From an uncultured Bacilli bacterium (GTDB lineage: Bacteria; Bacillota_I; Bacilli_A; RF39; UBA660): DNA of 64,000 nt. Where the stretch lies: positions 73,295 through 137,294 of the forward strand of contig CAKOPW010000001.1 in NCBI GenBank assembly GCA_934101115.1, read 5' to 3'. This document shows, piece after piece, positions 36,374 to 64,000 of this stretch. The number at the start of each line of letters is the position of its first letter. Within the stretch, counting starts at the first letter, position 1. A program made the position numbers and the translations under genes. Below the pieces are notes generated by a model that was given only the letters and a program-made list of their open reading frames with translations, was not told the DNA's origin and did no database searches.

Positions 36374-37330
36374 ATGAAACAACAAACTATCGTATTTAAA
36401 ATATCGGATAATTTAAAAAATAAAGTAATAGATTTTTATAAAGATCGTGCTCTTCCAAATCATCCACCCTATTCCGTATTTCAAGTTAAAGATTATGACT
36501 GTGTTATCACATTATATGAATCCGGAAAATTAATGTTTCAAGGAATAGGCGCTGATATTGAAGCAAGCTATTGGATGGAAGAAGAAAGAATCAACAATAA
36601 TCGTGATTTAGAAAAAGAATTAAAGGATAAACAAGATAAAAAAGACAAAAAAGATGAAGAACTAAATGATACTCGTTTTAAAAATATTTCTACTATCGGT
36701 TCTGATGAAGTTGGAACTGGAGATTATTTTGGTCCTATAATTGTAACGGCATCTTTTGTGGATATAAGTAAAAAATCTTTTCTTTATGACTTAGGAGTAA
36801 GAGATTCAAAAAAAATTACTGATGAAAAAATAATGTCTATCGCACCTACTTTAATAAAAGAATTTCCTCACGTTACATATATCTTGACTCCAAGTGATTA
36901 TAACCGTTTAGGAATTACTAATATGAATAAAGTAAAAGCTATATTGCATAATAAAGTATTGTTTGCATTAAAAAATAAAAACTATAACTATGATAAAATT
37001 GTAGTTGATCAATTCTGCTTTCCAACTAAATATTATGAGCATATAAAGGAAACACCAAATAAGGTTACAAATATTACATTTACTACTCATGCTGAAGATA
37101 AGTGTCTAAGTGTTGCTGTTTCAAGTATTATTTCAAGATATATTTTCATTAAAGAAATGGAAAAAATGGAAGATCAATTAAAAATGAGAATTCCAAAAGG
37201 TGCTGGCGATATCGTAGATCAAACAGGTGTGAAGATCGTTAATAGTTATGGAATAGAAAAATTAAAAGATATTGCAAAATTAAATTTTAAAAATACCGAT
37301 AAAATTAAAGAGTTCTTACAAATCAAGTAA
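36374..37330 (+). CDS. rnhC: Ribonuclease HIII
   Basis: N-terminal substrate-binding domain followed by an RNase HII/HIII core: GSDEVGTGDYFGP, DSKK. Confidence 0.88.
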   Translation: MKQQTIVFKISDNLKNKVIDFYKDRALPNHPPYSVFQVKDYDCVITLYESGKLMFQGIGADIEASYWMEEERINNNRDLEKELKDKQDKKDKKDEELNDTRFKNISTIGSDEVGTGDYFGPIIVTASFVDISKKSFLYDLGVRDSKKITDEKIMSIAPTLIKEFPHVTYILTPSDYNRLGITNMNKVKAILHNKVLFALKNKNYNYDKIVVDQFCFPTKYYEHIKETPNKVTNITFTTHAEDKCLSVAVSSIISRYIFIKEMEKMEDQLKMRIPKGAGDIVDQTGVKIVNSYGIEKLKDIAKLNFKNTDKIKEFLQIK

Positions 37331-38245
37331 GAACTCTTTTAATGCATAAATTTGGTCATAACCACTTTTTAATTTTAAATCTAGATTGGATAAAGAAACA
37401 ATTATATCTTTTAATTGATCAAGAGTATAAATTTTTCCGTTTCTTTTTAATACTCCTACTCTTTTTGGATTAGAATATCCAAATAGTTTAGCTATTTCTT
37501 CATCACTTAAACCATCAGCAGAAGCACTTTTTACCATATAAATGTTGGTAAAACTACTAGCAAGAAGTGCTACTATATTAATTGGTTCACTTCCATTTTT
37601 TAATAGAGTATCTAAATATTTAAATCCTAAATTAAAATCCTTAGCTATTATCGCATTTGAAAAAGCAAATGTTACATCCTCATCATTTTTTTTAGTGTTT
37701 GAAGCAACTAAATCATGAGTTATATTGTTGCTTAAATTGGAAAGCCTTTCAATCTCATTGATAGTTATATCTATATTATTTGAACTATTATTATATATTT
37801 CCAATAAAGCATCTCTATTTATACTTATATTCTCTTTTTTAAAATAATCAACTATATAAGTTACAACATCATCTTCATTATTACCAGTTAAATCAATAAA
37901 TTTTACTCCTAAAGAAATTAAATCTTTTACAATTTTTTTAGATTTTAAAACTTCGTCATTAATAAAAATTACCATTGTCTCATCATCTAAATTGGATAAT
38001 GCACTTTTTAATTTATTGCATTCTTCCTCATATGAAAAATTACCAGCAAAGTATTTTACGTTTTTTACAATTATACATTTGCTCTCAGAAAAAAGTCCAA
38101 AATGTTGCATGCTTTCTATTACATCATCAATCAAATCTTCCACTAAAGAAAAATTTTCAATCTCTTTGTAGTCTTTACTAAGCTCTTTGATTTTATCATT
38201 TAAAAATGTAAAACTATTTGATTTAATAATGTATTTATTTTCCAT
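37316..38245 (-). CDS. holA: DNA polymerase III delta subunit
   Basis: Starts at MENKYIIKSN, ATG at 38245 with GGTGGA upstream. The 53 upstream codons in the ORF track are the antisense of tRNA-His. Confidence 0.75.
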   Translation of the reverse strand: MENKYIIKSNSFTFLNDKIKELSKDYKEIENFSLVEDLIDDVIESMQHFGLFSESKCIIVKNVKYFAGNFSYEEECNKLKSALSNLDDETMVIFINDEVLKSKKIVKDLISLGVKFIDLTGNNEDDVVTYIVDYFKKENISINRDALLEIYNNSSNNIDITINEIERLSNLSNNITHDLVASNTKKNDEDVTFAFSNAIIAKDFNLGFKYLDTLLKNGSEPINIVALLASSFTNIYMVKSASADGLSDEEIAKLFGYSNPKRVGVLKRNGKIYTLDQLKDIIVSLSNLDLKLKSGYDQIYALKEFLLDL

Positions 38246-38336
38246 ATGATCCACCTTTAAAATTATAGCATTTAAAATTAATATAATAAAGGACTTGCAA
38301 TACATAAAATTATTTGATAGAATTAGATATGTCAAT

Positions 38337-38413
38337 GGCGAAATTGGTGAAGTGGTTAACACGCCGGATTGTGGCTCCGGTATGCGTGGGTTCGATTCCC
38401 ACATTTCGCCCCA
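38337..38413 (+). tRNA. tRNA-His (GTG)
   Basis: Hand-folded. G-1 pairs with C73. Acceptor GCGAAAT/ATTTCGC. Anticodon stem CCGGA/TCCGG with loop TTGTGGC. T-arm GTGGG-TTCGATT-CCCAC. CCA is encoded. Confidence 0.9.
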
Positions 38414-47860: not shown

Positions 47861-48889
47861 TCATTTTAAATTATTATTACATAAAATTGCCTCAATCTTA
47901 TTCACATAGTTATATGAATTAGAATGACTTGCATGTCCTAAAAAAGAATTATAACTTAATAAAAATTTTTTATCATAAAACATATTATTGTTTTTTAAAT
48001 ATATCCATTGTTTAATTGACTTCTTTACTTTCTTTTTAAAGCGTTTTCTAAGAAGAATATGTGTTGGATAAATAATATATCCACAAAAATCAATACCTAA
48101 TTTATTAGGATAATATCTGCTTTTATGATTAAGCGACAGATTTAAATGGGCACTTACAAAAGTTGAAACTAAGTTGAGCACTTCTTTTGCTTCATCTTTG
48201 GTTTTTAAAATAAAAATCTGATCGTCCATATATCTTGTATAAAATTTTATTTTTAGTTCATCTTTTACATAATGGTCTAATTCATTTAAATAAATATTGG
48301 CAAAGAACTGACTGGTATAATTACCAATTGGAATTCCGACTTCGTTGCCATCATCAAGAATTTTTTTACTGAATTCAAGTAATTTTTTATCTTTAATTTT
48401 TGATGCTAAAATCTTTAATAATATTTCTTTATCTATACTATAAAAATATTTTTTTATATCGGTTTTTAAAATATAACAGTTTTTTCCATATAGTTTAGTT
48501 GCATTTCTCAATTGATTTTGAACACATATAACTGATTTATGCGTTCCTCGATTATCTAAACATGCATATGTATCATTGATGAACCGTTTCATAAAATAAG
48601 GCTTTATAAATTCTTCAACATACCATTGATGAACTATACGATCACGGTAAGGCAAAGATTTTATTATTCTTTCTTTTGGTTCATGAATAACAAATTCTCG
48701 ATATTCACCAAACTTATAAGTATTATTTTTTATCTCGTCCATTATTCTTATAAGATTAGTTTCTAATTCCATTTCAAATATTATTACTTCTTTTTTAGTC
48801 TTTTTACCTTTAGAAGCACGTATGTGGGCACTTAACATTTTTTCGAAAGTCAATTTAGATAGAAAAACATTTTTTATTGTTTTAGGCAT
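47861..48889 (-). CDS. DGR reverse transcriptase
   Basis: EPKERIIKSLPYRDRIVHQ, LKTDIKKYFYSID, PIGNYTSQFFANIYL (the DGR-specific IGxxxSQ block) and YTRYMDDQ. Collinear with my recollection of Bordetella phage Brt. Confidence 0.9.
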   Translation of the reverse strand: MPKTIKNVFLSKLTFEKMLSAHIRASKGKKTKKEVIIFEMELETNLIRIMDEIKNNTYKFGEYREFVIHEPKERIIKSLPYRDRIVHQWYVEEFIKPYFMKRFINDTYACLDNRGTHKSVICVQNQLRNATKLYGKNCYILKTDIKKYFYSIDKEILLKILASKIKDKKLLEFSKKILDDGNEVGIPIGNYTSQFFANIYLNELDHYVKDELKIKFYTRYMDDQIFILKTKDEAKEVLNLVSTFVSAHLNLSLNHKSRYYPNKLGIDFCGYIIYPTHILLRKRFKKKVKKSIKQWIYLKNNNMFYDKKFLLSYNSFLGHASHSNSYNYVNKIEAILCNNNLK

Positions 48890-49236
48890 GCATTTATCCA
48901 GCCTCCTAAAGACATACTAACTAAATTTATTTTTCTACTCCATGCTTCATAATTACGAATGTTTATATATTTTCTTTTGTATGATAATCTAGCAAATACC
49001 CTTTGCATTTTTAAATTGATATCAAGTTCATTTAAGTATTTTAATTTTTCCTTTTTATCAAATGACTTATATGCTAGTAAAATATACTTGATACCTTCGT
49101 AGGATGAATTTTTTATTGTTGCAACTATGCCTGATTTAGTTGAATTAGGATATTTCTCAGTGATCATTTCAAGATATATAATAAAATCCATGTATATTTG
49201 ATAAATTCGTGTTTCTTCAACACAGCTAGCTTTCAC
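48874..49236 (-). CDS. avd: Accessory variability determinant (four-helix-bundle protein)
   Basis: 120 aa, helical, ending SLGGWINA. Overlaps both neighbours and lies immediately upstream of the RT. Confidence 0.75.
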   Translation of the reverse strand: MKASCVEETRIYQIYMDFIIYLEMITEKYPNSTKSGIVATIKNSSYEGIKYILLAYKSFDKKEKLKYLNELDINLKMQRVFARLSYKRKYINIRNYEAWSRKINLVSMSLGGWINACLKQ

Positions 49237-49597
49237 TAATGAGCTTCTCCTTTACATCTTTTAATATATTCAATGCCTGCAAGGGCGTTATAGAATCAAT
49301 GTCTAAGTTGATTATTTTTTCTTTAATTGAATCATCTATATTAGTTTTTAAACTATCTACAACTTCGACGTCTAAGTTGTGATTTTTAAAAACGCGCATG
49401 TAGTTATCAAGAACATCAGCAGGAAAACCACATTTGTATGATTCACTTGAGAATTTTACTTTTTTTAATACAACATAATCATTGATAGTATCACAATCTT
49501 CACCAACAAATATATAAAATTTGCCAGATTTAAAAAGATATAATTTGTTTGCATCTTCTTTTTTTAATTGCAAATACTTTTGATATATCACACTCAA
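49226..49597 (-). CDS. MutS domain-I-like small protein (DGR accessory)
   Basis: From TTG 49597 (AAAGGAGGTGG upstream): SVIYQKYLQLKKEDANKLYLFKSGKFYIFVGEDCDTIN...KCGFPADVLDNYMRVFKNHNLDVEVV. This parallels the MutS N-terminus: mqQY..iK.....lLfFR.GDFYElF..DA...PMaGiP......Y...L...G..VAi. Confidence 0.6.
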   Translation of the reverse strand: MSVIYQKYLQLKKEDANKLYLFKSGKFYIFVGEDCDTINDYVVLKKVKFSSESYKCGFPADVLDNYMRVFKNHNLDVEVVDSLKTNIDDSIKEKIINLDIDSITPLQALNILKDVKEKLISES

Positions 49598-49620
49598 TAT
49601 TACCACCTCCTTTAATCCTA

Positions 49621-49645
49621 TTAAAAAAGTGGAAATGATCCACTT
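49621..49645 (-). terminator. Hairpin terminator/attenuator between the TR and the accessory operon
   Basis: On the minus strand: AAGTGGA-tcatt-TCCACTT followed by TTTTTAA, just upstream of the RBS of 49226-49597. Confidence 0.5.
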
Positions 49646-49836
49646 CTTTTTATCTTTGATGTTCATCATTTTACTACTAACCAAAGACATTCTTTTTTAT
49701 ATTTTATTCTACTATGTAGAAAGGTTATAAATTTCTAAAATAAACACTAAAACAAAATCCGTAGATTAATGATATAAAATATGAATATATTTTTCTTATC
49801 TTTGTTTATGTGAAGAATAATCTTATATATTTTAGT

Positions 49837-49986
49837 GGAGAGAACAAGGCGGAACCCGATGTTAGCATTGGCGCCTCCTGTGTTCCTATTGAAGTTGAAC
49901 TGACCTGCGAGAACTCCATTGTCGTAATTGCCGCCCCGATTGAACCAAGGATACGAGGAGTCAACAAAGTTCGAATTGTCGCCATA
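49837..49986 (-). repeat. DGR template repeat (TR)
   Basis: 150 bp, ungapped match to 50184-50333. Asn (AAY)-rich in the reading frame of the VR. Confidence 0.9.
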
Positions 49987-50090
49987 AAGAGTAAAAAGAG
50001 TCAAAAAAGCTAATTTCAACAACTTATAACCTACATTTATACTAAGACTAATAAATTAATATTTTAAACTAACCTACTAGACATAAATGC

Positions 50091-50134
50091 CAAAAAAGTG
50101 ATTCCTTTCCGCTTAAAAAGAAGGCGGAAAGGAA
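50091..50134 (-). terminator. Terminator of the DGR target gene
   Basis: 11-bp stem TTCCTTTCCGC/GCGGAAAGGAA followed by TCACTTTTTTG on the minus strand. Confidence 0.7.
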
Positions 50135-50156
50135 TATTAAAAGTGAAAAAAGTAAT

Positions 50157-50180
50157 TGTAAAAAAACAAGTTTTTTTACA
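50157..50180 (-). promoter_or_regulatory. Hairpin abutting the VR 3' end, candidate DGR target-recognition element
   Basis: Perfect 10-bp stem TGTAAAAAAA/TTTTTTTACA with a 4-nt loop, starting right after the stop codon (50181-50183). Confidence 0.5.
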
Positions 50181-51590
50181 CTAGGAGAGAACAAGGCGGA
50201 ACCCGATGTCAGCAGCGGCGCCTCCTGTGAGCCTAGAGAAGTGGAACTGACCTGCGAGAACTCCATGGTCGTACCTGCCGCCCCGATAGAACCAAGGAGA
50301 CGAGGAGTGAACAAAGTGCGAACTGCCGCCATACCAACTATTATGGTATCTAGAGTTGTTATCTCCGTCTAAATATGTCTTGAATGGTCCCATCTCTCCC
50401 GTTGCATCTCCTAATATTCTATATTGATAAGATGTTAATGTAGATGATGCTGAGTATACATCATAATATTTAGAATCATAATTAGCAAGTGTTGTAGCAC
50501 TAAAACCACTTGATCCTAATTGACCACTCATATATGATGCCACATATTCATGTGCTCCACCAGACATATCATATATTCCACTTATATTTCCAGTAGTTGT
50601 TGCAAGATAACCGATACTTGTATTATAAGCGTTATTATATGTGTTTCCATCACCATAAGTTCCTGGATATGTTTGTTGGCTTGTACTTGGAAGTGCTGAA
50701 TATCCTGTTTTATATGAACTATTATTATTAATGTTAACTTCCGCATTGATTCCATATTTTGAATGGCTTAGATATGCTACTGCTCCCCATTCAGTGTTTT
50801 TCATCATATGTGAATTCATTGCTCTTTTATAATTATAAGCAGCTGTAAACATATTCATGACTGTTAAATTTCTCCATGAATAAGAATTTGGTTTTACAAT
50901 TATTTTGCTTGAATCATTGGAATTTACTTGAGCAGCAGTTGCACTTGTTGCTCCATTGTATCCAGTTTCAAACTTACCTGCCCAGAAGCCATTTACTCCC
51001 ATGCTTATAAATGCTGGATGTGTCATATATTCTCCGTTTTTACAATTTCCACTTGATCCACTTGTCATTGGAGTTTTACAAGATACTCCGGTTACATCTG
51101 TTGTATCAGTTGTATCAAATATTATCTCGATTTCATGAATATTTTTTGAAGCCGTTCCAGTATTCCATAACTTATATTTATATTTTGGAATCCATACAAA
51201 GTAACTTTGGATATCACTTTCTTTTATTGTGTCTCCTACTTTATAACTTGCTCCACTATTAAGAATAACGGCATTTGCCCAAACTTTATCACAGTAGTTA
51301 TACCATACTTTACTTGTATCGGCGTATGTTACAGTTCCATCATCTGAAATAGTAACTGGTATTAAACCATCGGTTAAATTGGGAACTGCAACTTCTTTTG
51401 AACAAGATGTTAAATCAGATGCCTTGCTATAAAGTTCATCTAATGCATCTTGAACGTTTTTGGATTTTAATAAAGACGAAGAATTATCATAATATACATC
51501 TTTTCCGATAATTAAATCTGCTGCATATGCTACACTTACAAATAGTACTAATGCACACATACCAATTATTAATATTTTTCTATTTTTCAT
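50181..51590 (-). CDS. DGR target protein: secreted, with a C-terminal C-type-lectin/FGE-like variable domain
   Basis: Signal peptide ..VSVAYAAD. HMMKNTEWGAVAYL and a C-terminal ...PWFYRGG.Y..GVLAGQF.F.R..GGA..DIGFRLVLS typical of the CLec fold of DGR targets. Confidence 0.8.
   Translation of the reverse strand: MKNRKILIIGMCALVLFVSVAYAADLIIGKDVYYDNSSSLLKSKNVQDALDELYSKASDLTSCSKEVAVPNLTDGLIPVTISDDGTVTYADTSKVWYNYCDKVWANAVILNSGASYKVGDTIKESDIQSYFVWIPKYKYKLWNTGTASKNIHEIEIIFDTTDTTDVTGVSCKTPMTSGSSGNCKNGEYMTHPAFISMGVNGFWAGKFETGYNGATSATAAQVNSNDSSKIIVKPNSYSWRNLTVMNMFTAAYNYKRAMNSHMMKNTEWGAVAYLSHSKYGINAEVNINNNSSYKTGYSALPSTSQQTYPGTYGDGNTYNNAYNTSIGYLATTTGNISGIYDMSGGAHEYVASYMSGQLGSSGFSATTLANYDSKYYDVYSASSTLTSYQYRILGDATGEMGPFKTYLDGDNNSRYHNSWYGGSSHFVHSSSPWFYRGGRYDHGVLAGQFHFSRLTGGAAADIGFRLVLS
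50184..50333 (-). repeat. DGR variable repeat (VR), the last 50 codons of the target gene
   Basis: 17 mismatches to the TR, of which 15 fall at TR adenines on the coding strand. Confidence 0.9.
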
Positions 51591-53736: not shown

Positions 53737-55758
53737 TTATTCTTTTATAATATTTTTACTGCATAAATATGTTATTAAGAAATATCCTCCATATATAAGC
53801 ACAATAATCATACTGGTAAATATAACTGATTTTAATAAGCCGTTGTTTCCAAACATTTCAAGGATTTTTAAAGCAAAACGCATACCGAATATTGAATGTA
53901 TTATAGCAAGTAATAATGGTGTCATAAAGAAAATAAATATTTCTCTAAATAACGATTTTCGTATTAATTTATCATCAGCACCAATACGTCTTAGAATAAT
54001 ATATCTATTACGATTATCACTAGCTTCACTCAGATTCTTTAATGCAAGTATAGCTGCACTTGATATTAAGAAAACCACACCTAAATATATTCCTAAGAAA
54101 GTTACAATTACTCCTAACCCAACTGATGAATCTTCTAGATCAGTTTTAAACGAATAACCGACATTTCCAATATAAGAATTAGCTTTTTCAAAAATATCAT
54201 CAACATCATATTTTTTATTACGATTAGTTTCTTTATAAACTCCAATAAAATAATTATATTTTGGTTTTCTTCCTTTTAATACAGAATCTGGAACAACAAT
54301 TATACCTGTATTGGTTTTATTATTTGAAATCTCTACAAAGCCATCGATACATTTTTTATATTTAGGCTTTAATTCGTGGTTAAAAATTTTCACTTTAGTG
54401 TTTTTTTCTAAAGCCTCATTTCGCATATTCATCATTATTTCAAAATTAGCAACAATTATATATTCATCTTCGTTTAATCTTAATTCACTTTTCTTATACA
54501 ATCTAGCTATTTTATTGTAATCACTTAAAGACATAATAATCTCAAGTGGATCCTCGTCATAACCATATTTTTCCATCAAATAATCGTACATATCTCCTAC
54601 CGAATTGGAAAAGCAAAAAATCTCATCATAATAAAGATTAACAGAAGTATAATCACTTAGATAATTGCTATAATCAAATTTATTTTTATCATACCTTTCT
54701 TGTACGGTTAAATTTTTATATTCTGAATCATCAAAATTGGTTTCATCATAGCTATAAAACACATAAGTTTGAAAATCAGCAGGTGTTAACTCCTCTAAAT
54801 TTTTAGTAAGTGAGTCCCTTAAAGAAAAAGAACTAGATAATGCACATATTGTAATGAATAACATTAAACAGATCATGCTCATTGATACCACCGTAGTGTT
54901 TATTTTACTGCTTAATTGTCTTAGCATAAATGAATTTAAGCCTTTATAGTATACTCCTTTGATCTTGCTAACTATTTTCAATACAAGTCCGGATAAACTC
55001 CACATTATTAAAAATGTAGAAATAATACCATAAATTATTGGTTTAATAATATCTTTTAGATCTTTCAAATTTGATAAACCATCAGTTACCATATAGTATG
55101 CATATCCGAGTAAAGAGCAAGCAAACACAAAGACAAGCAAGCATATTATAGGATTTTTAATTTTAACTTTTTCGTTCTTTTTGCTTGAATAAAGCAAATC
55201 TATTAATTTACATCTTGTAACCACCAACGTATTAAATATCATAACTATTAAATACATTATTCCAAAATACATAAAAGTTTTTAACATAGCTGAAGTTGAA
55301 AATACAAAATGGTATTTTTCCATATCAGCATCAAAAAGGGAAGCAATTATAACACTCATTCCTTGAGATAAGAAAACTCCAAGAAAAAGTCCGGCTGCTA
55401 AAGAAATTATACCAATCATTAAAGTTTCTAAAAACAATATAAGAGATATTTTTCTTTTACTCATTCCCAACGTCAAATAAACACCAAATTCTTTATTTCT
55501 TCTTTTTATTAAAAACCTGCTAGCATAAATTATCAGAGCGCCCAAAATGAATGATACAAAAACGCTTGTTGCAGATAAAACAGATTCTAGTAAACCAATT
55601 ATTTCTTCAGTTCTTGAACTTATTTTTAACATTACAACTTGAGAATCAATTGAATTAAAAATATAAAATATTGATACTCCAAGCACTAGAGTAAAAAAGT
55701 ATATCGCATAATCTTTAAAACTCTTTTTTATATTTTTAAACGATAATTTAGCGATCAC
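53737..55758 (-). CDS. BceB-type FtsX-family ABC permease
   Basis: 673 aa with about 10 TM helices and a large extracellular loop. Followed by hairpin AAACTACAG/CTGTAGTTT. Confidence 0.85.
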   Translation of the reverse strand: MIAKLSFKNIKKSFKDYAIYFFTLVLGVSIFYIFNSIDSQVVMLKISSRTEEIIGLLESVLSATSVFVSFILGALIIYASRFLIKRRNKEFGVYLTLGMSKRKISLILFLETLMIGIISLAAGLFLGVFLSQGMSVIIASLFDADMEKYHFVFSTSAMLKTFMYFGIMYLIVMIFNTLVVTRCKLIDLLYSSKKNEKVKIKNPIICLLVFVFACSLLGYAYYMVTDGLSNLKDLKDIIKPIIYGIISTFLIMWSLSGLVLKIVSKIKGVYYKGLNSFMLRQLSSKINTTVVSMSMICLMLFITICALSSSFSLRDSLTKNLEELTPADFQTYVFYSYDETNFDDSEYKNLTVQERYDKNKFDYSNYLSDYTSVNLYYDEIFCFSNSVGDMYDYLMEKYGYDEDPLEIIMSLSDYNKIARLYKKSELRLNEDEYIIVANFEIMMNMRNEALEKNTKVKIFNHELKPKYKKCIDGFVEISNNKTNTGIIVVPDSVLKGRKPKYNYFIGVYKETNRNKKYDVDDIFEKANSYIGNVGYSFKTDLEDSSVGLGVIVTFLGIYLGVVFLISSAAILALKNLSEASDNRNRYIILRRIGADDKLIRKSLFREIFIFFMTPLLLAIIHSIFGMRFALKILEMFGNNGLLKSVIFTSMIIVLIYGGYFLITYLCSKNIIKE

Positions 55759-56512
55759 TTAAATCCCCTCCAAGTACAGTTACAACATCAATAATCTTGT
55801 CGAAAAATTCTTTTCTATCCAAGTTTCCCTTTTCTATTTCATTAAATATACGACCATCCTTGATAAATATTACTCGGCTGGAATAAGATGCGGTATAAGC
55901 ATCATGTGTAACCATTAAAATAGTCGACTTTTTTTCTTTATTCAAATATTCAAGACGTTCAAGAAGCATCTTAGCTGATTTTGAATCAAGAGCTCCAGTT
56001 GGTTCATCAGCAAGAATTAATGATGGATTTGTAATTATTGCACGAGCTGATGCTACTCTTTGTTTTTCTCCACCACTCATTTGATAAGGGTATTTATTCA
56101 ATACGTGAGTAATGTTTAAATATTTACTAACTTCCTTTATCTTTTCATCTAAATTTTTTACACTTTTGTTTTGAATGGACAAAGCAAGAGCTATATTATC
56201 ATAAGCAGTTAAAGTATCAAGTAAATTGAAATCTTGAAAAATAAAGCCTAATTCTTCTCTTCTGAATTCACTTAATTTGTTTCCTTTTAAAGTTGTGACA
56301 TCCAAGTCATTTAAATAAATATGACCACTGGTAACTTTATCAATAGTTGAAATACAGTTTAGAAGAGTTGTTTTACCACTTCCGCTCGCTCCCATAATCG
56401 CGATAAATTCACCGCGTTCAACATCAAAACTGATGTTATCGATAGCTTTCGTTAGACTCGATTTACTACCATAATATTTTTCTATTGAATCAATCTTCAA
56501 TAATTTTTCCAT
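55748..56512 (-). CDS. BceA-type ABC ATP-binding protein
   Basis: GASGSGKTT, MSGGEKQRVASARA, ILADEPTGALD. GGAAGGTGA precedes the ATG at 56512. Confidence 0.92.
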   Translation of the reverse strand: MEKLLKIDSIEKYYGSKSSLTKAIDNISFDVERGEFIAIMGASGSGKTTLLNCISTIDKVTSGHIYLNDLDVTTLKGNKLSEFRREELGFIFQDFNLLDTLTAYDNIALALSIQNKSVKNLDEKIKEVSKYLNITHVLNKYPYQMSGGEKQRVASARAIITNPSLILADEPTGALDSKSAKMLLERLEYLNKEKKSTILMVTHDAYTASYSSRVIFIKDGRIFNEIEKGNLDRKEFFDKIIDVVTVLGGDLSDR

Positions 56513-56599
56513 ATATTTCACCTTCCATGCTTTGATTATATGCTAAATTTATTAATTAATCGCGATTCTAATATTTCTATATCTTACAATTTTGTAATG

Positions 56600-57610
56600 T
56601 TAGATCTTATAAAGATCATTTTTGCCAAAAGTAATCGTTATTTCAAAATATTTATTTTCTTCACTTGTTGCACTTATTTTATGTCCAAGTTTTTCAATGA
56701 GTTTCTTACTTATATAAAGACCGAATCCAGTTGAATTACGCATCTTTCTTCCGTTTTCTCCAGTAAATGATTTATCAAAAACATGTTTTAAATCACTGGC
56801 ATTTACACCTATTCCATTATCTTTAATATGTAAAATAGTCTCTTTTTCATTATCTTCAATATAAAACATGATGTATGAATCTTTATTGTTATCACAATAT
56901 TTAATAGAATTATTTACTATTTGATTAAGGATAAAGACAAGCCATTTTGAGTCAGTTAAAACTTTAATATTCTTAACATCAACAGAAACATCAATATGAT
57001 TTTCAAGTATTGAATCTTTATTTTTTAAAAGTACTTCATTGATAATTTTATCCATGCTAGCTTCTTTAATTAAAAAGTCTTTTTCGGCATAGTTACTTCT
57101 AACATAATAAAGAATTTGATCAGTTAAATTATCTAAAGTATTTAATTGATCTAAAAATTTTCTATTAACATTTTTATTGTTATGATACATCAACATAAGT
57201 CCAGCTATCGGTATTTTTATCTCATGAATCCACATTTCCACATATTCTTTAAAATCTTCTGTTTCATTTCGATAATTGTTGATGTTTTCCATCATTGACT
57301 TATCAATTTTATATAAAGCATCATAAAAAACTTTTCCATCTAAAAATTCAGGTTCTTCCAAAGTTTCTAAGATCAAATATTTTTTATCCAATAAATTAAG
57401 GTTATTTAAAAAGTTATCATAATATTTTTTTCTCTTCAAGTAAAAGACAAGAAAATCGATAATAAAATATATACTTAATAGAACTAAAATCATTACAGTT
57501 AAATATTTATTTACATCAAATAAACTAAGCAAAAATAGTAAAATGATAAATAATACTACAAATAGTATTATATTAGCTCTTTTTTCTTTTATATATGTTT
57601 CTATACTCAT
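56600..57610 (-). CDS. BceS-like intramembrane-sensing histidine kinase
   Basis: Two N-terminal TM helices with almost no loop. H-box WIHEIKIP. N and G boxes (NSIKY, DNGIGV, GFGLY). Confidence 0.88.
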   Translation of the reverse strand: MSIETYIKEKRANIILFVVLFIILLFLLSLFDVNKYLTVMILVLLSIYFIIDFLVFYLKRKKYYDNFLNNLNLLDKKYLILETLEEPEFLDGKVFYDALYKIDKSMMENINNYRNETEDFKEYVEMWIHEIKIPIAGLMLMYHNNKNVNRKFLDQLNTLDNLTDQILYYVRSNYAEKDFLIKEASMDKIINEVLLKNKDSILENHIDVSVDVKNIKVLTDSKWLVFILNQIVNNSIKYCDNNKDSYIMFYIEDNEKETILHIKDNGIGVNASDLKHVFDKSFTGENGRKMRNSTGFGLYISKKLIEKLGHKISATSEENKYFEITITFGKNDLYKI

Positions 57611-58269
57611 AATAAGATATACCCTAACCCCTTCTTAGTTTCAATCGCATCCGTTAATGAAGCATCACTTAACTTACTTCTTAAGCGACTAATATTAACT
57701 GTTAAAGCATTATCGTTAATATATTCATCATTATTCCAAAGAGTTGTCATAATTTCATCTCTTGAGACAATCTTACCTAAGTTATCAAACAAACACATAA
57801 AGATAATCATTTCGTTTTTAGTAAGTTCGATTACTTTATCGCCACTTTCCAACTCACAACGTGATTTATTAATAAAAAATCCTCGATACATCTTATTTTG
57901 TTCAGTATTATTACATCTTTTTAAAACTGATTGAATTCTTAATATTAAAATATTAGGATTATAAGGCTTCGTTATATAATCATCTGCTCCATAAGTGATT
58001 GATAAAGCTTCATCAAGTTCATTATTGTTACTAGTAACCATAATAACAGGAATATTGCTTTTTTCTCTTATTCTTTTTAAAACTTCTTTGCCATTTAAAC
58101 ATGGGATATTGATATCAAGCAAAACTAAATCAGAGTTGCTTGCAAGTAAAGATTCTTCAACATGTGAAAAATCTTCAACACAATAAACATCATAGTTAGC
58201 ATTTTTAAGAAGTTCTCCTAATTCTTTTCTAATCGTTTCATCATCTTCTACTATAGCAATTTTCTTCAT
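57607..58269 (-). CDS. OmpR-family response regulator
   Basis: Receiver domain (DLVLLDINIP) plus a winged-helix C-terminus (LTVNISRLRSKL...GLGY). Confidence 0.92.
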   Translation of the reverse strand: MKKIAIVEDDETIRKELGELLKNANYDVYCVEDFSHVEESLLASNSDLVLLDINIPCLNGKEVLKRIREKSNIPVIMVTSNNNELDEALSITYGADDYITKPYNPNILILRIQSVLKRCNNTEQNKMYRGFFINKSRCELESGDKVIELTKNEMIIFMCLFDNLGKIVSRDEIMTTLWNNDEYINDNALTVNISRLRSKLSDASLTDAIETKKGLGYILL

Positions 58270-58310: not shown

Positions 58311-59222
58311 CTACCTTACTTTTTTGTAATGTTCTTTATCTTCATACATCGCTTCATCGGCTATTTTAGTTAAATCATTTAAACTTAAGTTTTTTTCTTT
58401 GTAAGCAACTCCTATGGCACAACTATATTTAGTTTTATTCATTTTTTCTTTTAACTCTTTTATAAATTCTTCTATTTCTAATTTATGAGTATTATAGCAA
58501 ACAATTAAAAATTCATCGCCTCCTACTCGATATAAACGCATATCCTTTAAAATCGTTGTTTTGATTAGCTCTACCAAAGTTACAATTGCTTTATCTCCTT
58601 CATCATGGCCTAAAGTATCATTGATTTTCTTTAAATTATTTAAATCAATGCTTATAATAGCATTAATTTGTTTTTTATTTTTATTAAAATCTCTTTTTAA
58701 AGGTTTTCTATTTAAAGTATCTGTAAGTTCATCTTTTATATAAAAATCACATATTAAATATATAAAATAGAATAACGTAAAGAAAGTATTACCTATATAT
58801 AATTTATCTATTAAAAGAGAAATTATTAAGAATATATATAAGACAGCACGTATATTATTATCATATTTTGGATTATTTAAATAACTATATAATTCAACAA
58901 CAACTAAAAACGTTGTATAGATAAAGAAAACATCCATCCTATTAAATATAAAGTAAGAAATTAATAATACAATATTTGAAATAAAATTTAATTTTTTACT
59001 TTTTATCGTATAAAGAGAATATAACATAAAATTTAATAAATACAAAAAGCTAATAAGATAAGCTCCATTTAAAAATAATAGAAATTCAAATATGTTTAGA
59101 AAAAACATAATATTGATAATCAATTTATTGGTTGTATCCTTTAAATAAAAGATAAACGAATAGTAGATAATCATTATAAAGATAAAAAAGACAAAATAGT
59201 TATTTATAAATATATCAAACAT
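58311..59222 (-). CDS. Membrane-bound GGDEF diguanylate cyclase
   Basis: About 5 TM helices followed by DSLTxLxNR-like TDTLNRKP and RVGGDEFLIV. Confidence 0.85.
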   Translation of the reverse strand: MFDIFINNYFVFFIFIMIIYYSFIFYLKDTTNKLIINIMFFLNIFEFLLFLNGAYLISFLYLLNFMLYSLYTIKSKKLNFISNIVLLISYFIFNRMDVFFIYTTFLVVVELYSYLNNPKYDNNIRAVLYIFLIISLLIDKLYIGNTFFTLFYFIYLICDFYIKDELTDTLNRKPLKRDFNKNKKQINAIISIDLNNLKKINDTLGHDEGDKAIVTLVELIKTTILKDMRLYRVGGDEFLIVCYNTHKLEIEEFIKELKEKMNKTKYSCAIGVAYKEKNLSLNDLTKIADEAMYEDKEHYKKVR

Positions 59223-59263
59223 TTAATCACCCTATTTAATAATATTAAAAAGGAAGCAAATAA

Positions 59264-60457
59264 TTACTTCCTTTCTAATAATTGTCTTTCATATTCATAT
59301 GTAGCTAATCTATTGCTATATTGCAATTTTGTTAATTCTTCATTGATTCCCATAATCCAATATTCTTTATCTTCATCATCTATACATGTTTCCATTTCTT
59401 TCATATATTCAAATACTTGATCAAGCTCTTCTCCAAAATAAAATTTAAATTCTTCTATATGATCTTTAAAATAGTCATATGTATATGTCTTCGCGACTAT
59501 TTCAGTTTTCTTTAAAAAATTTGCTAATTTGTATTGCTCAAAGCCAAGACGAACCATTAAAGATGCTACATACTCACGTTCTTCACTGGTTAAGATTTCA
59601 CTGGTTAAGATTTCATTAGTTAATTCTCCAGTATATGGATTATAATATTTTTTTACTTCTTTTAATAAAGTTTTATATTCTTTATCATTTATATATTTGT
59701 GAGTTTGTGGTTCTGTTGTTTTTTTAACTTCGGTTACTGAAACTTGATTTTTTGTTTTACTGCGTTTATTCAATCTGCTTAATAATTCATTTTCAATGCT
59801 TTCAGCAACATAAATTGATACTCCTAAATTTAAGAAAGCTTTGAATACCTTTAATATATTTTTTTCATCATATGTATTTGGTATGTTTGTATAATTTTCT
59901 TTTATTATAGAAATGTTTGTAAAAACACTATTTAAATCCAATTGATATTCGAAACCACAATTGCCTAACTTAGATAAAACCTCTTGATCTTGTTCGATTG
60001 CAGATTTCATTGGTTGATAATTACCTTTGGTTGCATCTATCAAATGATTTTGATTAACAGATTTGCTGAAATAATGAAAATAAACTTCATAGCAATCAAT
60101 AACGTATGCTTCATCATTTGTTATTGGGCAATCGGATATAAAATCAAGTAAAACGTTTGCTATCTCTTTTCGCGTCAATGATGAATCTTCTAAAGTATCA
60201 GCTAATATTTTTACAATATTTGTTAAATAAAAATATTCAGTAAACTGACAACTCTTAAACATATTTGATAAAGTCAAATAGATAATTTCTAAATGAGTTA
60301 TTCTTTTTAGTTTTTCGGATGTTTCATTACATGGAAAATTACTTTTTCCTCCCAATTTTCTTAACTTTTCTTCTAGTAAAATTGCACTATTGACTTTTTT
60401 TAACTCTATCACTTGTTCATCAAAAAAGTTTATTGCTTTTTGATATGATTTATTCAC
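59264..60457 (-). CDS. Paralog-array protein 1 (unknown function)
   Basis: GTG 60457 (AAAGGTGA upstream) gives VNKSYQKAINFF.., parallel to the N-termini of the paralogs. The conserved C-terminal module is KTYTYDYFKDH.EEF.FYFGEEL...DKEYWIMGINEEL. A terminator follows the stop. Confidence 0.7.
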   Translation of the reverse strand: MNKSYQKAINFFDEQVIELKKVNSAILLEEKLRKLGGKSNFPCNETSEKLKRITHLEIIYLTLSNMFKSCQFTEYFYLTNIVKILADTLEDSSLTRKEIANVLLDFISDCPITNDEAYVIDCYEVYFHYFSKSVNQNHLIDATKGNYQPMKSAIEQDQEVLSKLGNCGFEYQLDLNSVFTNISIIKENYTNIPNTYDEKNILKVFKAFLNLGVSIYVAESIENELLSRLNKRSKTKNQVSVTEVKKTTEPQTHKYINDKEYKTLLKEVKKYYNPYTGELTNEILTSEILTSEEREYVASLMVRLGFEQYKLANFLKKTEIVAKTYTYDYFKDHIEEFKFYFGEELDQVFEYMKEMETCIDDEDKEYWIMGINEELTKLQYSNRLATYEYERQLLERK

Positions 60458-60470
60458 TTTGATCACCTTT

Positions 60471-61472
60471 CTAATATTGTACCAATAAATTCTTTTTAGT
60501 TTTCTTTTCTTGGTCTCTTTCTTTAAAAGTTGTTGAACCATTGATGCATGCTACTGTGTTTGCTAACATTTTCTCATAATAGAAATTGTATTCTTCCTCA
60601 TAATCATATTTTTCTTTTTGTTGATCATCAGTTTCCTTTAAGAACTTGATAACACTTTCTTTTTTTGTGTTTATTATAATCATTGCAATTACTACTTGTT
60701 CTCGCTCTTCTTTGGATATTTTTAATAAAATTGTTTCATCAGTGTCTAAATTAAAATATTTGTTTATTATTTCTAAATATTGATGATATTCTTTTTTATA
60801 ATAATCTCTAACTAATTCGTCCTCCAATACATATAACATAGCGGGATTCACTCCCAACCTCAATAATCCATTAATTGCTTCAAAAATGTACTTTGGATTA
60901 TTTTTTCTCTTTATATTTGCATATGATTTTTGAATACTTCTAATCTGTTCACAGATATTATCAATATCAAGAATAAATAATTCGCTATTTAATGCATCTT
61001 GTAAACGACTATCTTTTTTTATAAAATCGCGGATTTCTTTTTCATCGCCAGCAACATAACTTTTTACCATTTCATCGCTTATTATACTTGGATAGTATTC
61101 TAAAATTATTTTGAAAATATCGATATCTTTTTTTCTTTCATAAACCTTTGGGATTTCTTCAATCATAGAAAATAGAATGTTAGCAATTTCTTGAATGCTT
61201 AAATCGGTTGATTCTAATACATCGGTTAATAAACAAATCATATTAGTAGAAAAAAACATCTCCTTTTTACCAGTTTTTAAGTAAGATTTTAGAATAGAAA
61301 ATTCGAGTTGCTTTTTATTTGGTAAATGTTCTTCGTTTTTTGAAGTGGGATTCTTTTTAATTTCAAAATAATCATAAGCATCTTGTAAAGAAACAGAATA
61401 ACTTCTATTATTATCGATTAAACTTTTTTCGATAATATCTAAAATTTGTATATAAATTTTATTCATCATCAC
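60471..61472 (-). CDS. Paralog-array protein 2 (short form lacking the conserved C-terminal module)
   Basis: The N-terminal two thirds are homologous to the paralogs (..IQEIANILFSMIEEIP.., ..LLRLGV..). The C-terminus is diverged or truncated. Confidence 0.65.
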   Translation of the reverse strand: MMMNKIYIQILDIIEKSLIDNNRSYSVSLQDAYDYFEIKKNPTSKNEEHLPNKKQLEFSILKSYLKTGKKEMFFSTNMICLLTDVLESTDLSIQEIANILFSMIEEIPKVYERKKDIDIFKIILEYYPSIISDEMVKSYVAGDEKEIRDFIKKDSRLQDALNSELFILDIDNICEQIRSIQKSYANIKRKNNPKYIFEAINGLLRLGVNPAMLYVLEDELVRDYYKKEYHQYLEIINKYFNLDTDETILLKISKEEREQVVIAMIIINTKKESVIKFLKETDDQQKEKYDYEEEYNFYYEKMLANTVACINGSTTFKERDQEKKTKKNLLVQY

Positions 61473-62652
61473 TATTTTTACTTTGAACTAATAATTTTGT
61501 TTCATATTCGTAAGAATTTAATTTGTTACCTGATTTTAATTTATCAAGTTCTTCATTTATTCCCATAATCCAATATTCTTTGTCTTCATCACTCACACAT
61601 AATGTAATTTCTTCCATATATGCTTTTACTTGTTCTAGTTCTTCTCCAAAGTAGAATTCAAACTCCTCTACATGATCTTTAAAATAATCATAGGTATAAG
61701 TTTTTTCTACCATTTCTGTTTTGCTTAAAAAGTCCAATAATTGCTCTTGTTCTACTCCAATTTGAATCATTAGTGAAGCAATATATTCACGCTTCTCACT
61801 AGTTAAAATTTCATCAGTAAGCTTTCCTGAGGAAGGATTATAGTATTTGTTTATTTCTTTTAAAATTGCTCGATATTCTTTATCACTCAAATATTTACTT
61901 GGTTTTGGTTCTTTTTTGATAACTATTGGGGTTTGTTCTTTTATTGCATCTTTCTTTACTCTTTCAAATAATTGATAAAGTAACTCCTTCTCTACTATTT
62001 TAACGTGTTTTGTACTTACACCTAGTGTAGAAAGTGCATATAAAACATTAGCAATATTGCTTACATCAAAACTATCTTTGATTTTGGAATAATTATCTTT
62101 AATTATTTCAATTTGCTTAATTACCGCACCTAAATCCATAAATACCGCTGAACAATCATAATTAATTAGTTTTAGAAAATTTTTATCAGAAATACGTTCA
62201 ATAATTTTAGCTGGATTAGTCGTTAAATAACTATACATTTCTTGTTGACTAATAACAGCTGGGAAGTAAATCGATAATGTAGCAGTAAGATCAGGTATAA
62301 ATATAGGTTCATCAGTAGTGTTTTCAATATTTATTGAAACACTTGATGCAACACTCAATAATATATTAGAAATTGTTTTATTATCAAAAGGAAACTTATC
62401 AAGTGCTTCTGAGAGTATACGCATGGTATCTGAAAATGCAAAAAATGCTGGGTTTCCATAACAGATATATTGTCTCAACATTGCTGTGCCAAAGCTCTCT
62501 CGTTTTATTGAAACACAAGTTTCAGTGGCTACTCGATCATTTTCTAATCTTTCTTTATAACTTTTAACAAAAGGATTATCACCAGGAACTGGTAATTTTA
62601 AATTCAAATCCTTGTCTAAAACATCTAATATTTTTTTATAATATTTATTCAT
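61459..62652 (-). CDS. Paralog-array protein 3
   Basis: 397 aa with the full conserved C-terminal module. 14-nt overlap with the next gene. Confidence 0.7.
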   Translation of the reverse strand: MNKYYKKILDVLDKDLNLKLPVPGDNPFVKSYKERLENDRVATETCVSIKRESFGTAMLRQYICYGNPAFFAFSDTMRILSEALDKFPFDNKTISNILLSVASSVSINIENTTDEPIFIPDLTATLSIYFPAVISQQEMYSYLTTNPAKIIERISDKNFLKLINYDCSAVFMDLGAVIKQIEIIKDNYSKIKDSFDVSNIANVLYALSTLGVSTKHVKIVEKELLYQLFERVKKDAIKEQTPIVIKKEPKPSKYLSDKEYRAILKEINKYYNPSSGKLTDEILTSEKREYIASLMIQIGVEQEQLLDFLSKTEMVEKTYTYDYFKDHVEEFEFYFGEELEQVKAYMEEITLCVSDEDKEYWIMGINEELDKLKSGNKLNSYEYETKLLVQSKNSDDE

Positions 62653-63955
62653 TTTCTTCTAGCCTTCTTTCAACTAATAATTTTGTTTCATATTCGTAAG
62701 AATTTAATTTGTTACCTGATTTTAACTTATCAAGTTCTTCATTTATTCCCATAATCCAATATTCTTTGTCTTCACTACTTACACATAATTTAATTTCTTC
62801 CATATATTCAAATATTTGATCAAGTTCTTCTCCAAAATAAAATTTAAATTCTTCCACATGATCTTTAAAATAATCATAGGTATAAGTTTTCTCTACTACC
62901 TCCGTTTTGCTTAAAAAGTCTGAAATAACTGATTGATCGATTTCAACTTTAACCATTAGATATGTAATATACTCGCGTTTTTCTTCAGATATTTCTTCCA
63001 ATAGTTCTCTTGTATATGGGTTATAGCTTTTCCTTATTTCTTTTAAAACTGCTCGATATTCTTTATCTGTTAAATTTTTACTCTTTTTTGCTTCTATAGC
63101 TGCTTTTTTACTCATTTGGTTTTCAAAAAGTTCTTTTTTTAAAGTTTTTCTCATATAAGTAATTAGATTATGAGGGAATCCTAATCTCTCTAAACTCCAA
63201 CAAACTTCTTCAATGGATGTTTCGTCAAAATTTTCTTGATTATGTAAATAACTTTTTTTAATTTGATTAATATTGTTTTTAATTTTAATTGGACGCAGCG
63301 TTGGATTTATTTTTTCTCGAGAAATCACTGATTTTAGTGATACAAATAACAGATTGAGATAAATATCGATGTTTCCTGTGGAAAATTCTAAGACATCAAC
63401 ATTTCTAAAAAAGAAACGCCCTTTTTCAAATATATCAAAGATATCATAACTAAATTCTGACTCACATAACTGAATCGGATAATTTTCTATTAGTTCCATT
63501 AAAAAATCACATACTAAATCTTTTGGTAATGATGACTTTCCTAATTCAACTGCATAACTTTTTATTATATTTGTTAACTTAAAATACCCAATACTTTGGT
63601 CATTTTGTGTTGAATATTTTGTTATTGTAGTTAAAGGTGAGTTATATTGTTCTGCTAATTTGATTGCATTTGCTAAAGATGATTTTGATTCTTTGTTTAA
63701 GAGACTATTATCCTTTTCATCTTTGGCAGCATATATTTCATCTAAATGTTTTAGAAGATACAATAAAAGTAATCTTCTCATTATTTGAATCGTTGTGTTA
63801 CTTACTCTAATGTAGCTTTCTGATAACTCAATTCTTGCTTTAGCTGTATTTAAAAATGCATCAATATCTTCATCTAAACATGGATCAAAATCAGGTGCTA
63901 TATTTTTAGCAATACTCTTTTTTAGATATTCCTCTATTTCTTTATATTTCTTCAT
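62645..63955 (-). CDS. Paralog-array protein 4
   Basis: 436 aa with the full conserved C-terminal module. 8-nt overlap with the next gene. Confidence 0.7.
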   Translation of the reverse strand: MKKYKEIEEYLKKSIAKNIAPDFDPCLDEDIDAFLNTAKARIELSESYIRVSNTTIQIMRRLLLLYLLKHLDEIYAAKDEKDNSLLNKESKSSLANAIKLAEQYNSPLTTITKYSTQNDQSIGYFKLTNIIKSYAVELGKSSLPKDLVCDFLMELIENYPIQLCESEFSYDIFDIFEKGRFFFRNVDVLEFSTGNIDIYLNLLFVSLKSVISREKINPTLRPIKIKNNINQIKKSYLHNQENFDETSIEEVCWSLERLGFPHNLITYMRKTLKKELFENQMSKKAAIEAKKSKNLTDKEYRAVLKEIRKSYNPYTRELLEEISEEKREYITYLMVKVEIDQSVISDFLSKTEVVEKTYTYDYFKDHVEEFKFYFGEELDQIFEYMEEIKLCVSSEDKEYWIMGINEELDKLKSGNKLNSYEYETKLLVERRLEENE

Positions 63956-64000
63956 GATTATCTTTCCTATCTTTTAACAATTTCGTTTCATATTCATACG
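63942..64000 (-). CDS. C-terminal end of a fifth paralog (partial, continues right of the window)
   Basis: Hand translation gives ..YEYETKLLKDRKDNHEEI*, matching the ..YEYETKLLV.. tails of paralogs 3 and 4. Its stop overlaps the start of paralog 4. Confidence 0.6.
   Translation of the reverse strand, partial: YEYETKLLKDRKDNHEEI

Follow-up and report, generated by a model that had tools for sequence, protein, structure and literature searches.

The window analysed here is a stretch of 64,000 nucleotides (nt) from contig CAKOPW010000001.1 (positions 73,295 to 137,294) of an uncultured Bacilli bacterium, and the subject of this analysis is an array of paralogous genes at its right-hand end. Four complete paralogous open reading frames (ORFs) and the 3' end of a fifth are encoded on the minus strand between positions 59264 and 64000. 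A public contig (L001) that matches the window exactly carries the remainder of the array, which comprises six genes in total (g1 to g6) coding for proteins of 403, 394, 436, 397, 331 and 397 amino acids (aa), respectively. The original prediction, made from the letters of the window, had correctly recognised a paralogous array, but its count of at least five genes is corrected to six. Each protein is built of an N-terminal domain of ~240 aa (N-domain), a K/E-rich linker and a Tyr/Glu-rich C-terminal module of ~140 aa (C-module), and the comparison of these parts among related genomes points to gene conversion that is restricted to the C-module.

The first gene, g1 (type A, 403 aa; the types refer to the N-domain lineages described below), is located at L001 2288-3499 and lies beyond the window edge, as do the remainder of g2 and the promoter. 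The g2 gene (type B, 394 aa in full; L001 3499-4683) is represented in the window by its 3' end (63942-64000), which encodes a C-terminus ending in YEYETKLLKDRKDNHEEI before the stop codon, in agreement with the earlier reading of a fifth gene cut by the window edge. It is followed on the same strand by g3 (62645-63955; type C, 436 aa), with its N-domain at 63068-63955 and its C-module at 62645-63067, and by g4 (61459-62652; type D, 397 aa), with its N-domain at 61885-62652 and its C-module at 61459-61884. The type D N-domain of g4 was encountered in the window's genome only. The C-module of g5 (60471-61466, minus strand; type E, 331 aa), which is orthologous to g5 of the L009 locus, is degenerate and truncated (60471-60794). 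The last gene, g6 (59264-60457, minus strand; type F, 397 aa), comprises an N-domain at 59687-60457 and a C-module at 59264-59686 and has a GTG start codon. The longest ORF for this gene codes for 425 aa from position 60541 and is over-extended, the GTG codon being the predicted true start, as a ribosome-binding site (RBS; AAAGGTGA) is situated 6 nt upstream of it, the N-termini of the paralogues align from this point (xNKxY...) and a database gene call (P0004) is likewise 397 aa in length. Successive genes overlap by 14, 8 and 8 nt, while g5 and g6 are separated by a gap of 13 nt with the RBS inside it, so that the overlaps or abutments of 8-14 nt noted earlier hold as overlaps for three of these junctions and as a gap for the fourth.

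Upstream of g1, the hexamers TTGACT and TACAAT, the latter with a TG extension, are separated by 17 nt and followed by a GGAGG RBS. This arrangement is kept across seven genomes, in six of which it occurs in this form, with a diverged -10 element in L013, and indicates probable transcription by the housekeeping sigma-A. Given the single near-consensus sigma-A-type promoter, and with stop and start codons that overlap or lie close together, the six genes are in all probability transcribed and translated together. The operon start and any partner gene had been placed beyond position 64000; the start does lie there, two genes on, with the sigma-A promoter following mntP, but no partner gene for the array was found in the extended operon. 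A role in sporulation or the spore coat, considered in view of the Tyr-rich module and the presence of SpoIVB and SSPI in some neighbourhoods, was dropped since the conserved promoter is of the sigma-A type.

At the 3' end of the array, a terminator-like hairpin (59243-59280, minus strand) with a 17 bp stem and a folding energy of -19.4 kcal/mol (z = -6.3, with 0/200 shuffles folding as well) extends over the g6 stop codon, with U-rich sequence after it. This hairpin was not picked up by a simple terminator scan. A single terminator had been proposed at 59230-59260; a strong hairpin does exist, but it lies slightly further to the right. The gene coding for a GGDEF protein starts 41 nt past the stop codon of the array, and some read-through is therefore possible.

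The paralogues are acidic (isoelectric point ~5) and hydrophilic and are devoid of signal peptides and of convincing transmembrane segments. Only g1, outside the window, passes the hydropathy cut-off of 1.6 (1.82), and it does so within a polar helix-loop-helix segment. Tyrosine accounts for 9-11% and glutamate for 17-20% of the C-module residues. A hidden Markov model (HMM) of the family matches every copy in the array, with E-values from 1e-23 to 1e-85 (g5 E = 6e-23), and the paralogy is therefore not due to chance. Together with the gene junctions and the absence of library matches (see below), these features bear out the translationally coupled array of cytoplasmic paralogues, without a recognisable family, that had been read from the window.

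Five public contigs code for the g4 protein, and the identical locus occurs in two independent gut-metagenome assemblies, one of which derives from a Hadza sample. The hosts of the syntenic loci are metagenome-assembled genomes designated 'uncultured Bacilli bacterium' and 'Firmicutes bacterium CAG:582' (the CAG:582 clade), all low-GC gut Bacilli. The window itself is ordinary chromosome, with gyrA/parC-like, holA-like and FTHFS genes and a GC content of ~28%. In the CAG:582 clade the family is always located between mntP and the GGDEF gene, and across seven genome types the copy number at this locus is 6, 6, 3, 3, 3, 2 and 2. Six copies are encoded in the window (L001) and in L009, three in L003/L011, L010 and L017, and two in L005-8, L012, L013 and L021-25. 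The array is preceded on its 5' side by mntP, a gene for a small transmembrane protein and one for a glycine-rich surface protein, and followed on its 3' side by genes for the membrane GGDEF protein, a response regulator/histidine kinase pair and an ABC/FtsX transporter.

Individual copies appear to have been lost in some strains. In one gut strain (L026 11390-12780), an IS3-type element comprising a 181-aa orfA and a 269-aa DDE transposase splits the type B gene, while in L027 (9570-11132) a family gene occurs as three ORF fragments, which represents either a pseudogene or an assembly error. Both observations indicate that individual copies are dispensable. The disrupted type B gene in L026 represents a natural knock-out.

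Tandem, same-strand and tightly packed genes coding for small acidic cytoplasmic proteins, with copy numbers that vary from strain to strain, are typical of the immunity arrays of polymorphic toxin systems (SUKH/Imm). The array shares this organisation and has both a variable and a constant part, its copy number likewise varies among strains, and one copy is disrupted by an insertion sequence in one strain and hence dispensable. It could accordingly be envisaged as an orphan immunity-protein array, in which each paralogue neutralises a different competitor-delivered polymorphic toxin by means of its N-domain. In the ~10 kb on either side of the locus in the seven syntenic genome types, however, only the genes for MntP, the transmembrane protein, surface proteins, the GGDEF protein, the response regulator and histidine kinase and the ABC/FtsX transporter occur, and no toxin, LXG/WXG, Rhs, contact-dependent inhibition (CDI) or type VI or VII secretion system gene was found. 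No Imm or SUKH family was matched by the window proteins or by 110 family members, the two-domain proteins of 400 aa far exceed the typical size of immunity proteins, and the N-domain types, far from evolving fast, are conserved as orthologues and subject to purifying selection. Four loci of distant homologues that were inspected, of which three contain a single gene and one (L020) a tandem pair, are embedded in unrelated housekeeping neighbourhoods that have no neighbour in common (Tex/NrdDG/MiaB; MraZ/RsmB-type methyltransferase/PBP5; PriA/RNase HII/SSPI; PBP/Wzz-CpsD-CpsB), and none has a toxin or secretion partner. The analogy with immunity arrays made in the original prediction thus finds no counterpart at these loci, and such a function is considered to have only a slim chance of being correct. 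At L020 (6641-11390), the two tandem family genes immediately precede, on the upstream side, a module of Wzz, a CpsD-like tyrosine kinase and the phosphatase CpsB, a single occurrence which is intriguing given the Tyr-rich C-module.

The evolution of the two domains was compared using 20 genes from five genome types, cut at the DKEY motif. In identity matrices and neighbour-joining trees, the N-domains cluster by type across the genomes, with seven types (A-G) being distinguished. Identities amount to 41-84% within and 10-25% between types, in line with the earlier description of the N-termini as only distantly alignable, and for 20/20 genes the nearest N-domain relative is found in another genome. 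By contrast, the C-modules cluster by genome. The three C-modules of L003 share 88-92% amino acid identity among themselves, as opposed to ~60-65% with their L001/L009 orthologues, while the C-modules of g1-g4 share 82-89% amino acid identity in L009 and 62-79% in L001. The same genome-wise grouping is observed for L017 g2-g3 and L013 g1-g2, so that it occurs independently in five lineages. Among the complete window copies, the ~140-aa module, which had been recognised as shared by g3, g4 and g6, is 63-72% identical among these three at the amino acid level, while the g5 version shares 26-31%. At the nucleotide level, whole C-modules are 73-83% and N-domains 39-46% identical. The segments 61470-61700 and 62655-62890, previously described as almost identical, do show a high identity of 91.4% over 220 nt, although that wording was too strong.

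Two copies deviate from this pattern. The type F C-module of g6 is 95% identical between L001 and L009 and has not been homogenised with those of g1-g4, while the C-module of g5 (type E), though degenerate and truncated, is kept between genomes, with a ratio of non-synonymous to synonymous substitution rates (omega) of ~0.38.

The high similarity of the C-modules might be explained by selection alone, without gene conversion, if this module were under very strong purifying selection and the N-domains had drifted after old duplications. The low omega values of the C-modules (0.07-0.32, as compared with 0.23-0.49 for orthologous N-domains) and the fact that the module is the best-conserved part in close orthologues would be in keeping with this. 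Selection on the protein sequence cannot, however, explain why the C-modules of one genome resemble each other more than they do their orthologues, independently in the five lineages, nor why the synonymous sites follow the same pattern. The synonymous divergence (dS) of the C-modules is 0.26-0.67 within arrays as compared with 0.86-1.20 between L001/L009 orthologues (types A, B and C), and the same codon is used at 76-92% of identical residues within arrays as compared with 69-77% for these orthologues. Sharp mosaic breakpoints are also present. The 5' half of the g3 C-module resembles that of g2 and the 3' half that of g4 in nucleotide alignments, with a max-chi-square permutation p of 0.0005, and three further triplets have p ~0.001. 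Selection as the sole cause is accordingly given a very slim chance.

On the basis of the genome-wise clustering, the lower dS within arrays, the shared codons and the mosaic breakpoints, the comparisons show that gene conversion has recurred independently in separate lineages, restricted to the C-module and acting on top of purifying selection. The N-domains, as judged from the same alignments, are shown to be old, stable orthologous lineages of paralogues under purifying selection rather than hypervariable cassettes, and neither the orthologous N-domains nor the C-modules show a sign of overall diversifying selection in their omega values. The array has the features of a multigene family under domain-restricted concerted evolution, which denotes an evolutionary category and not a protein family. 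Confidence in this evolutionary mechanism as a whole is high.

Recombination-driven variation had been put forward as one explanation for the array. Recombination does act on the locus, as the mosaic breakpoints (permutation p <= 0.001) indicate, but it homogenises the constant module and thus runs counter to what a variation system would require. A programmed system, in which recombination moves variable domains into an expression site, as in specificity-subunit cassettes, shufflons or antigenic-variation-like switches, would be compatible with the flanking of every variable domain by conserved modules in direct repeat and with the detectable recombination tracts. All copies are, however, complete ORFs on the same strand with their own RBS and start codon, and there is no silent cassette. 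Repeats in the region 59200-64000 are direct only, with no inverted repeats being found, and no recombinase, invertase or restriction-modification gene occurs within ~10 kb of the array in the seven syntenic genome types. No HsdS (Methylase_S), HsdM or HsdR was found among the Pfam and NCBIfam matches, the types and order of the N-domains are largely stable between genomes, and antigenic variation would be senseless in cytoplasmic proteins. The comparison with specificity-subunit cassettes can thus be set aside, and programmed variation of any kind is regarded as extremely improbable.

The array proteins belong to an uncharacterised protein family that is new to the databases. No significant match was found for the four window proteins in Pfam, NCBIfam, PHROGs or PADLOC. 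The best matches in PADLOC-DB v2, to GajB (E = 3e-4 over 75 residues) and BrxA (E = 0.005-0.01), are not consistent across the paralogues, and by these profiles the array would not belong to the known anti-phage systems of that database. A word-indexed search of 5.8 billion proteins recovered no more than 30 relatives, none of which has a name or a Pfam domain. When 1.84 billion representatives were searched exhaustively with a profile, 191 proteins were recovered at E <= 1e-3, most of them ~400 aa in length and matched over their full length. The resulting family size of ~190 refers to clusters at 50% identity; no source names were found for the clusters that were looked up. Among 20 distant members, including forms of 560-700 aa, no Pfam domain and no fused known domain was detected, and among 110 members no Pfam match recurred apart from a LYRM2-like match in five (best E = 0.008), which was taken as compositional. 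No relative was found in the IMG/VR viral contigs, and a PHROG match was obtained for only one of 30 members (E = 8e-4). With the locus being syntenic and chromosomal, the family does not have the attributes of one that is borne by phages or mobile elements.

A model of the g4 protein, the copy chosen for structure prediction, was obtained with AlphaFold2. With a shallow alignment of 25 sequences, the predicted local distance difference test score (pLDDT) was 73 and Foldseek found no match. An alignment of 129 sequences raised the mean pLDDT to 86.7, with values of 92-98 in the C-module, and yielded an all-alpha protein of two domains joined by a disordered linker at residues ~240-255. The best Foldseek matches of this second model had E-values of 1.1 in the PDB and 0.66 in BFVD, so that there is no fold match in either, and in searches with PDB sequence profiles designed helical repeats were the sole matches. 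RRNPP/Rap-type receptors are all-alpha cytoplasmic proteins of ~380-420 aa with multiple paralogues in Firmicutes, and the array proteins resemble them in all of these respects. Such receptors have a superhelical TPR domain, usually preceded by an N-terminal HTH, and a cognate gene for a small peptide downstream. Unlike these receptors, the family has no TPR or HTH match in Pfam, and the Foldseek match to NprR is very weak (E = 1.5, TM-score 0.12). Since the array genes overlap, there are also no small peptide genes between the copies.

The invariant residues of the family are Y, E, K, D, L, F, R and I, which in the alignments form no constellation that would appear catalytic. A helix-loop-helix with the motif DIxxVxxxLxxLGVS recurs at the end of the N-domain and the start of the C-module; an internal duplication was considered on this basis, but the hhalign comparison (E ~0.001-0.015 at low probability) provides a hint only and it was not retained. 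Some distant members are ~630 aa in length (P0053, P0069, P0094 and P0129, among others). The one that was read, P0053, apparently contains two N-domains before one C-module, which suggests that duplication at the level of domains may also occur inside single genes.

Aside from the array, the window contains a complete diversity-generating retroelement (DGR; 47861-51590, minus strand) at a distance of ~8 kb. It consists of a target gene (50181-51590, minus strand) coding for a 469-aa protein without Pfam match, a template repeat (TR; 49837-49986), a MutS_I-like gene (49226-49690), bAvd (48874-49236) and a reverse transcriptase gene (47861-48889). The TR is 89% identical to the variable repeat (VR) at 50184-50333, with 15 of the 17 mismatches at TR adenines. 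The possibility that the array is itself a DGR target was rejected, as the VR is localised in the 50181-51590 gene and nothing longer than 9-mers in the array matches the TR. The bAvd and MutS_I genes are also encoded ~7 kb from a distant family gene in L019 (1-1084), so that the family occurs near a DGR in two of five independent contexts. This proximity is probably a coincidence, as DGRs occur widely in gut Firmicutes.

A Bce-like peptide-sensing and detoxification module (53737-58269, minus strand), which is kept in all syntenic loci, lies downstream of the GGDEF gene and is made up of the response regulator, the histidine kinase, an ABC ATPase and a 673-aa FtsX permease. In the two-copy strains, the FtsX gene is followed by a gene coding for a 412-aa Schlafen AlbA_2 / HATPase_c_4 protein (L005 16787-18025) with a weak, pAgo/Aga-like PADLOC match; a 65-aa remnant persists in L009 (14776-14973) and the gene is absent from L001. 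The large surface protein encoded two genes upstream of mntP differs from genome to genome, being a glycine-rich protein of 326 aa or more in L001 (1-981), a 1921-aa Flg_new protein in L005/L012 (L005 1798-7563) and a 1593-aa Flg_new + ALK_LTK_GRD protein in L017 (1584-6365). Elsewhere in the window, two tandem paralogues of 745 and 716 aa with ALK/LTK-type glycine-rich domains (PF12810) are encoded at 13832-16069 and 16179-18329 (minus strand) and are responsible for a local rise in GC content to 0.376 (~0.28 elsewhere). A tRNA gene (38338-38410, plus strand) shares sequence with the 5' end of the holA-like ORF (37316-38404, minus strand), the listed start of which is, given this overlap, probably over-extended.

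The combination of a variable sensor with a constant module and a lineage-specific expansion would also be expected of an anti-phage or stress-sensing system, in which the N-domains sense different triggers and the C-module serves as a common effector or assembly domain. The unmatched fold and the accessory content nearby, in the form of the DGR 8 kb away and the Schlafen/pAgo-like ATPase gene that is present in some strains only, lend this some plausibility. The proteins nevertheless match no PADLOC model and contain no nuclease, TIR, SIR2, protease, pore or NTPase motif and no conserved residues of catalytic type. At the distant loci inspected, the relatives have core-genome surroundings and are not part of defence islands. 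The locus is not mobile but fixed and syntenic, with the family being absent from viral contigs. A defence function of this kind is therefore rated as improbable.

The concerted evolution observed here is of a known kind. With regard to the mode of evolution, the closest match, by analogy, is provided by the mammalian receptors TLR1 and TLR6, in which the N-terminal parts group by orthologue and a C-terminal block groups by paralogue as a result of independent, recurrent conversion in each lineage (Kruithof et al. 2007, PMC2077338). In both cases the genes are tandem paralogues, with N-terminal parts that are more alike between orthologues and a C-terminal block that is more alike between paralogues. 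In the view of the authors of that study, conversion maintains the co-evolution of a region that binds shared partners, with diversification taking place in the other domain (PMC2077338). Unlike the array, TLR1 and TLR6 are eukaryotic membrane receptors of known function with two copies only, and they have no protein homology to the array family, while the array comprises two to six copies of cytoplasmic bacterial proteins in one operon. Prokaryotic paralogues that resemble one another within a genome more closely than they do their orthologues have also been described and attributed to recurrent concerted evolution, with the proteins concerned often forming part of the same complex or pathway (Wang & Chen 2018, PMC6053082). 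Those cases involve known, key pathway genes and mostly whole genes, whereas in the array conversion is limited to one domain of an orphan family with a variable copy number.

Overall, the locus is reasonably well explained as a six-gene operon of paralogues whose C-modules have been homogenised by conversion and for which an adaptor-type role may be postulated, and this account as a whole is considered fairly probable. Conversion repeatedly homogenises the C-modules of most adjacent copies in each genome, giving rise to the appearance of a hyper-conserved module joined to a divergent one, while g6, situated behind the degenerate g5, escapes it. As two directly repeated C-modules flank every N-domain, unequal crossing-over between them would be an obvious route to the alleles with two, three and six copies, and copy number may have changed in this way. 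The joint expression of the tightly coupled genes from a single promoter, the lack of enzyme-like motifs and the two well-folded helical domains form the basis for the proposal that the proteins may be non-enzymatic binding or adaptor proteins. The C-module would dock on a common partner or drive homo- or hetero-oligomerisation, the N-domains would supply differing specificities and gene conversion would keep the shared interface co-evolving, as has been proposed for TLR1/TLR6. This biochemical role, as adaptors with a common docking or oligomerisation C-module, is put forward tentatively and remains somewhat doubtful.

Several observations weigh against this account. Triplets from L003 and L010 show no significant mosaicism in max-chi-square tests, homogenisation in the window's own genome is moderate only (62-79% amino acid identity), and the strong purifying selection on the C-module (omega ~0.1-0.3) adds to the similarity, so that conversion is not its sole cause. 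Co-transcription and translational coupling are deduced from sequence alone, the docking or oligomerisation idea draws only on analogy and the lack of enzyme-like features, and neither a partner nor a structural analogue has been found for the array proteins.

A bolder extension, that the array is an undescribed modular cytoplasmic system based on a fold without solved or viral-predicted analogue, in which the N-domains of several co-produced paralogues recognise different ligands, proteins or invaders and signalling or assembly proceeds via the shared C-module, the interface of which gene conversion keeps uniform, is considered unlikely; if true, it would represent a new sensor/adaptor or defence-like system specific to uncultured gut Bacilli. 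If the function is mundane, the finding amounts to a note on annotation and evolution. The locus provides a clean prokaryotic case of conversion limited to one domain of tandem paralogues, with a visible boundary and one copy that escapes, and its versions with two, three and six copies are useful for studying conversion and unequal crossing-over in bacterial multigene families. The family itself comprises ~190 clusters outside all domain databases and has a confidently predicted fold without a neighbour in the PDB or BFVD. Its hosts are uncultured low-GC Bacilli of Hadza and other human gut metagenomes, and a strongly promoted array of 7 kb represents a considerable outlay for a genome of this kind, suggesting that these proteins are likely to be important in the biology of the host.

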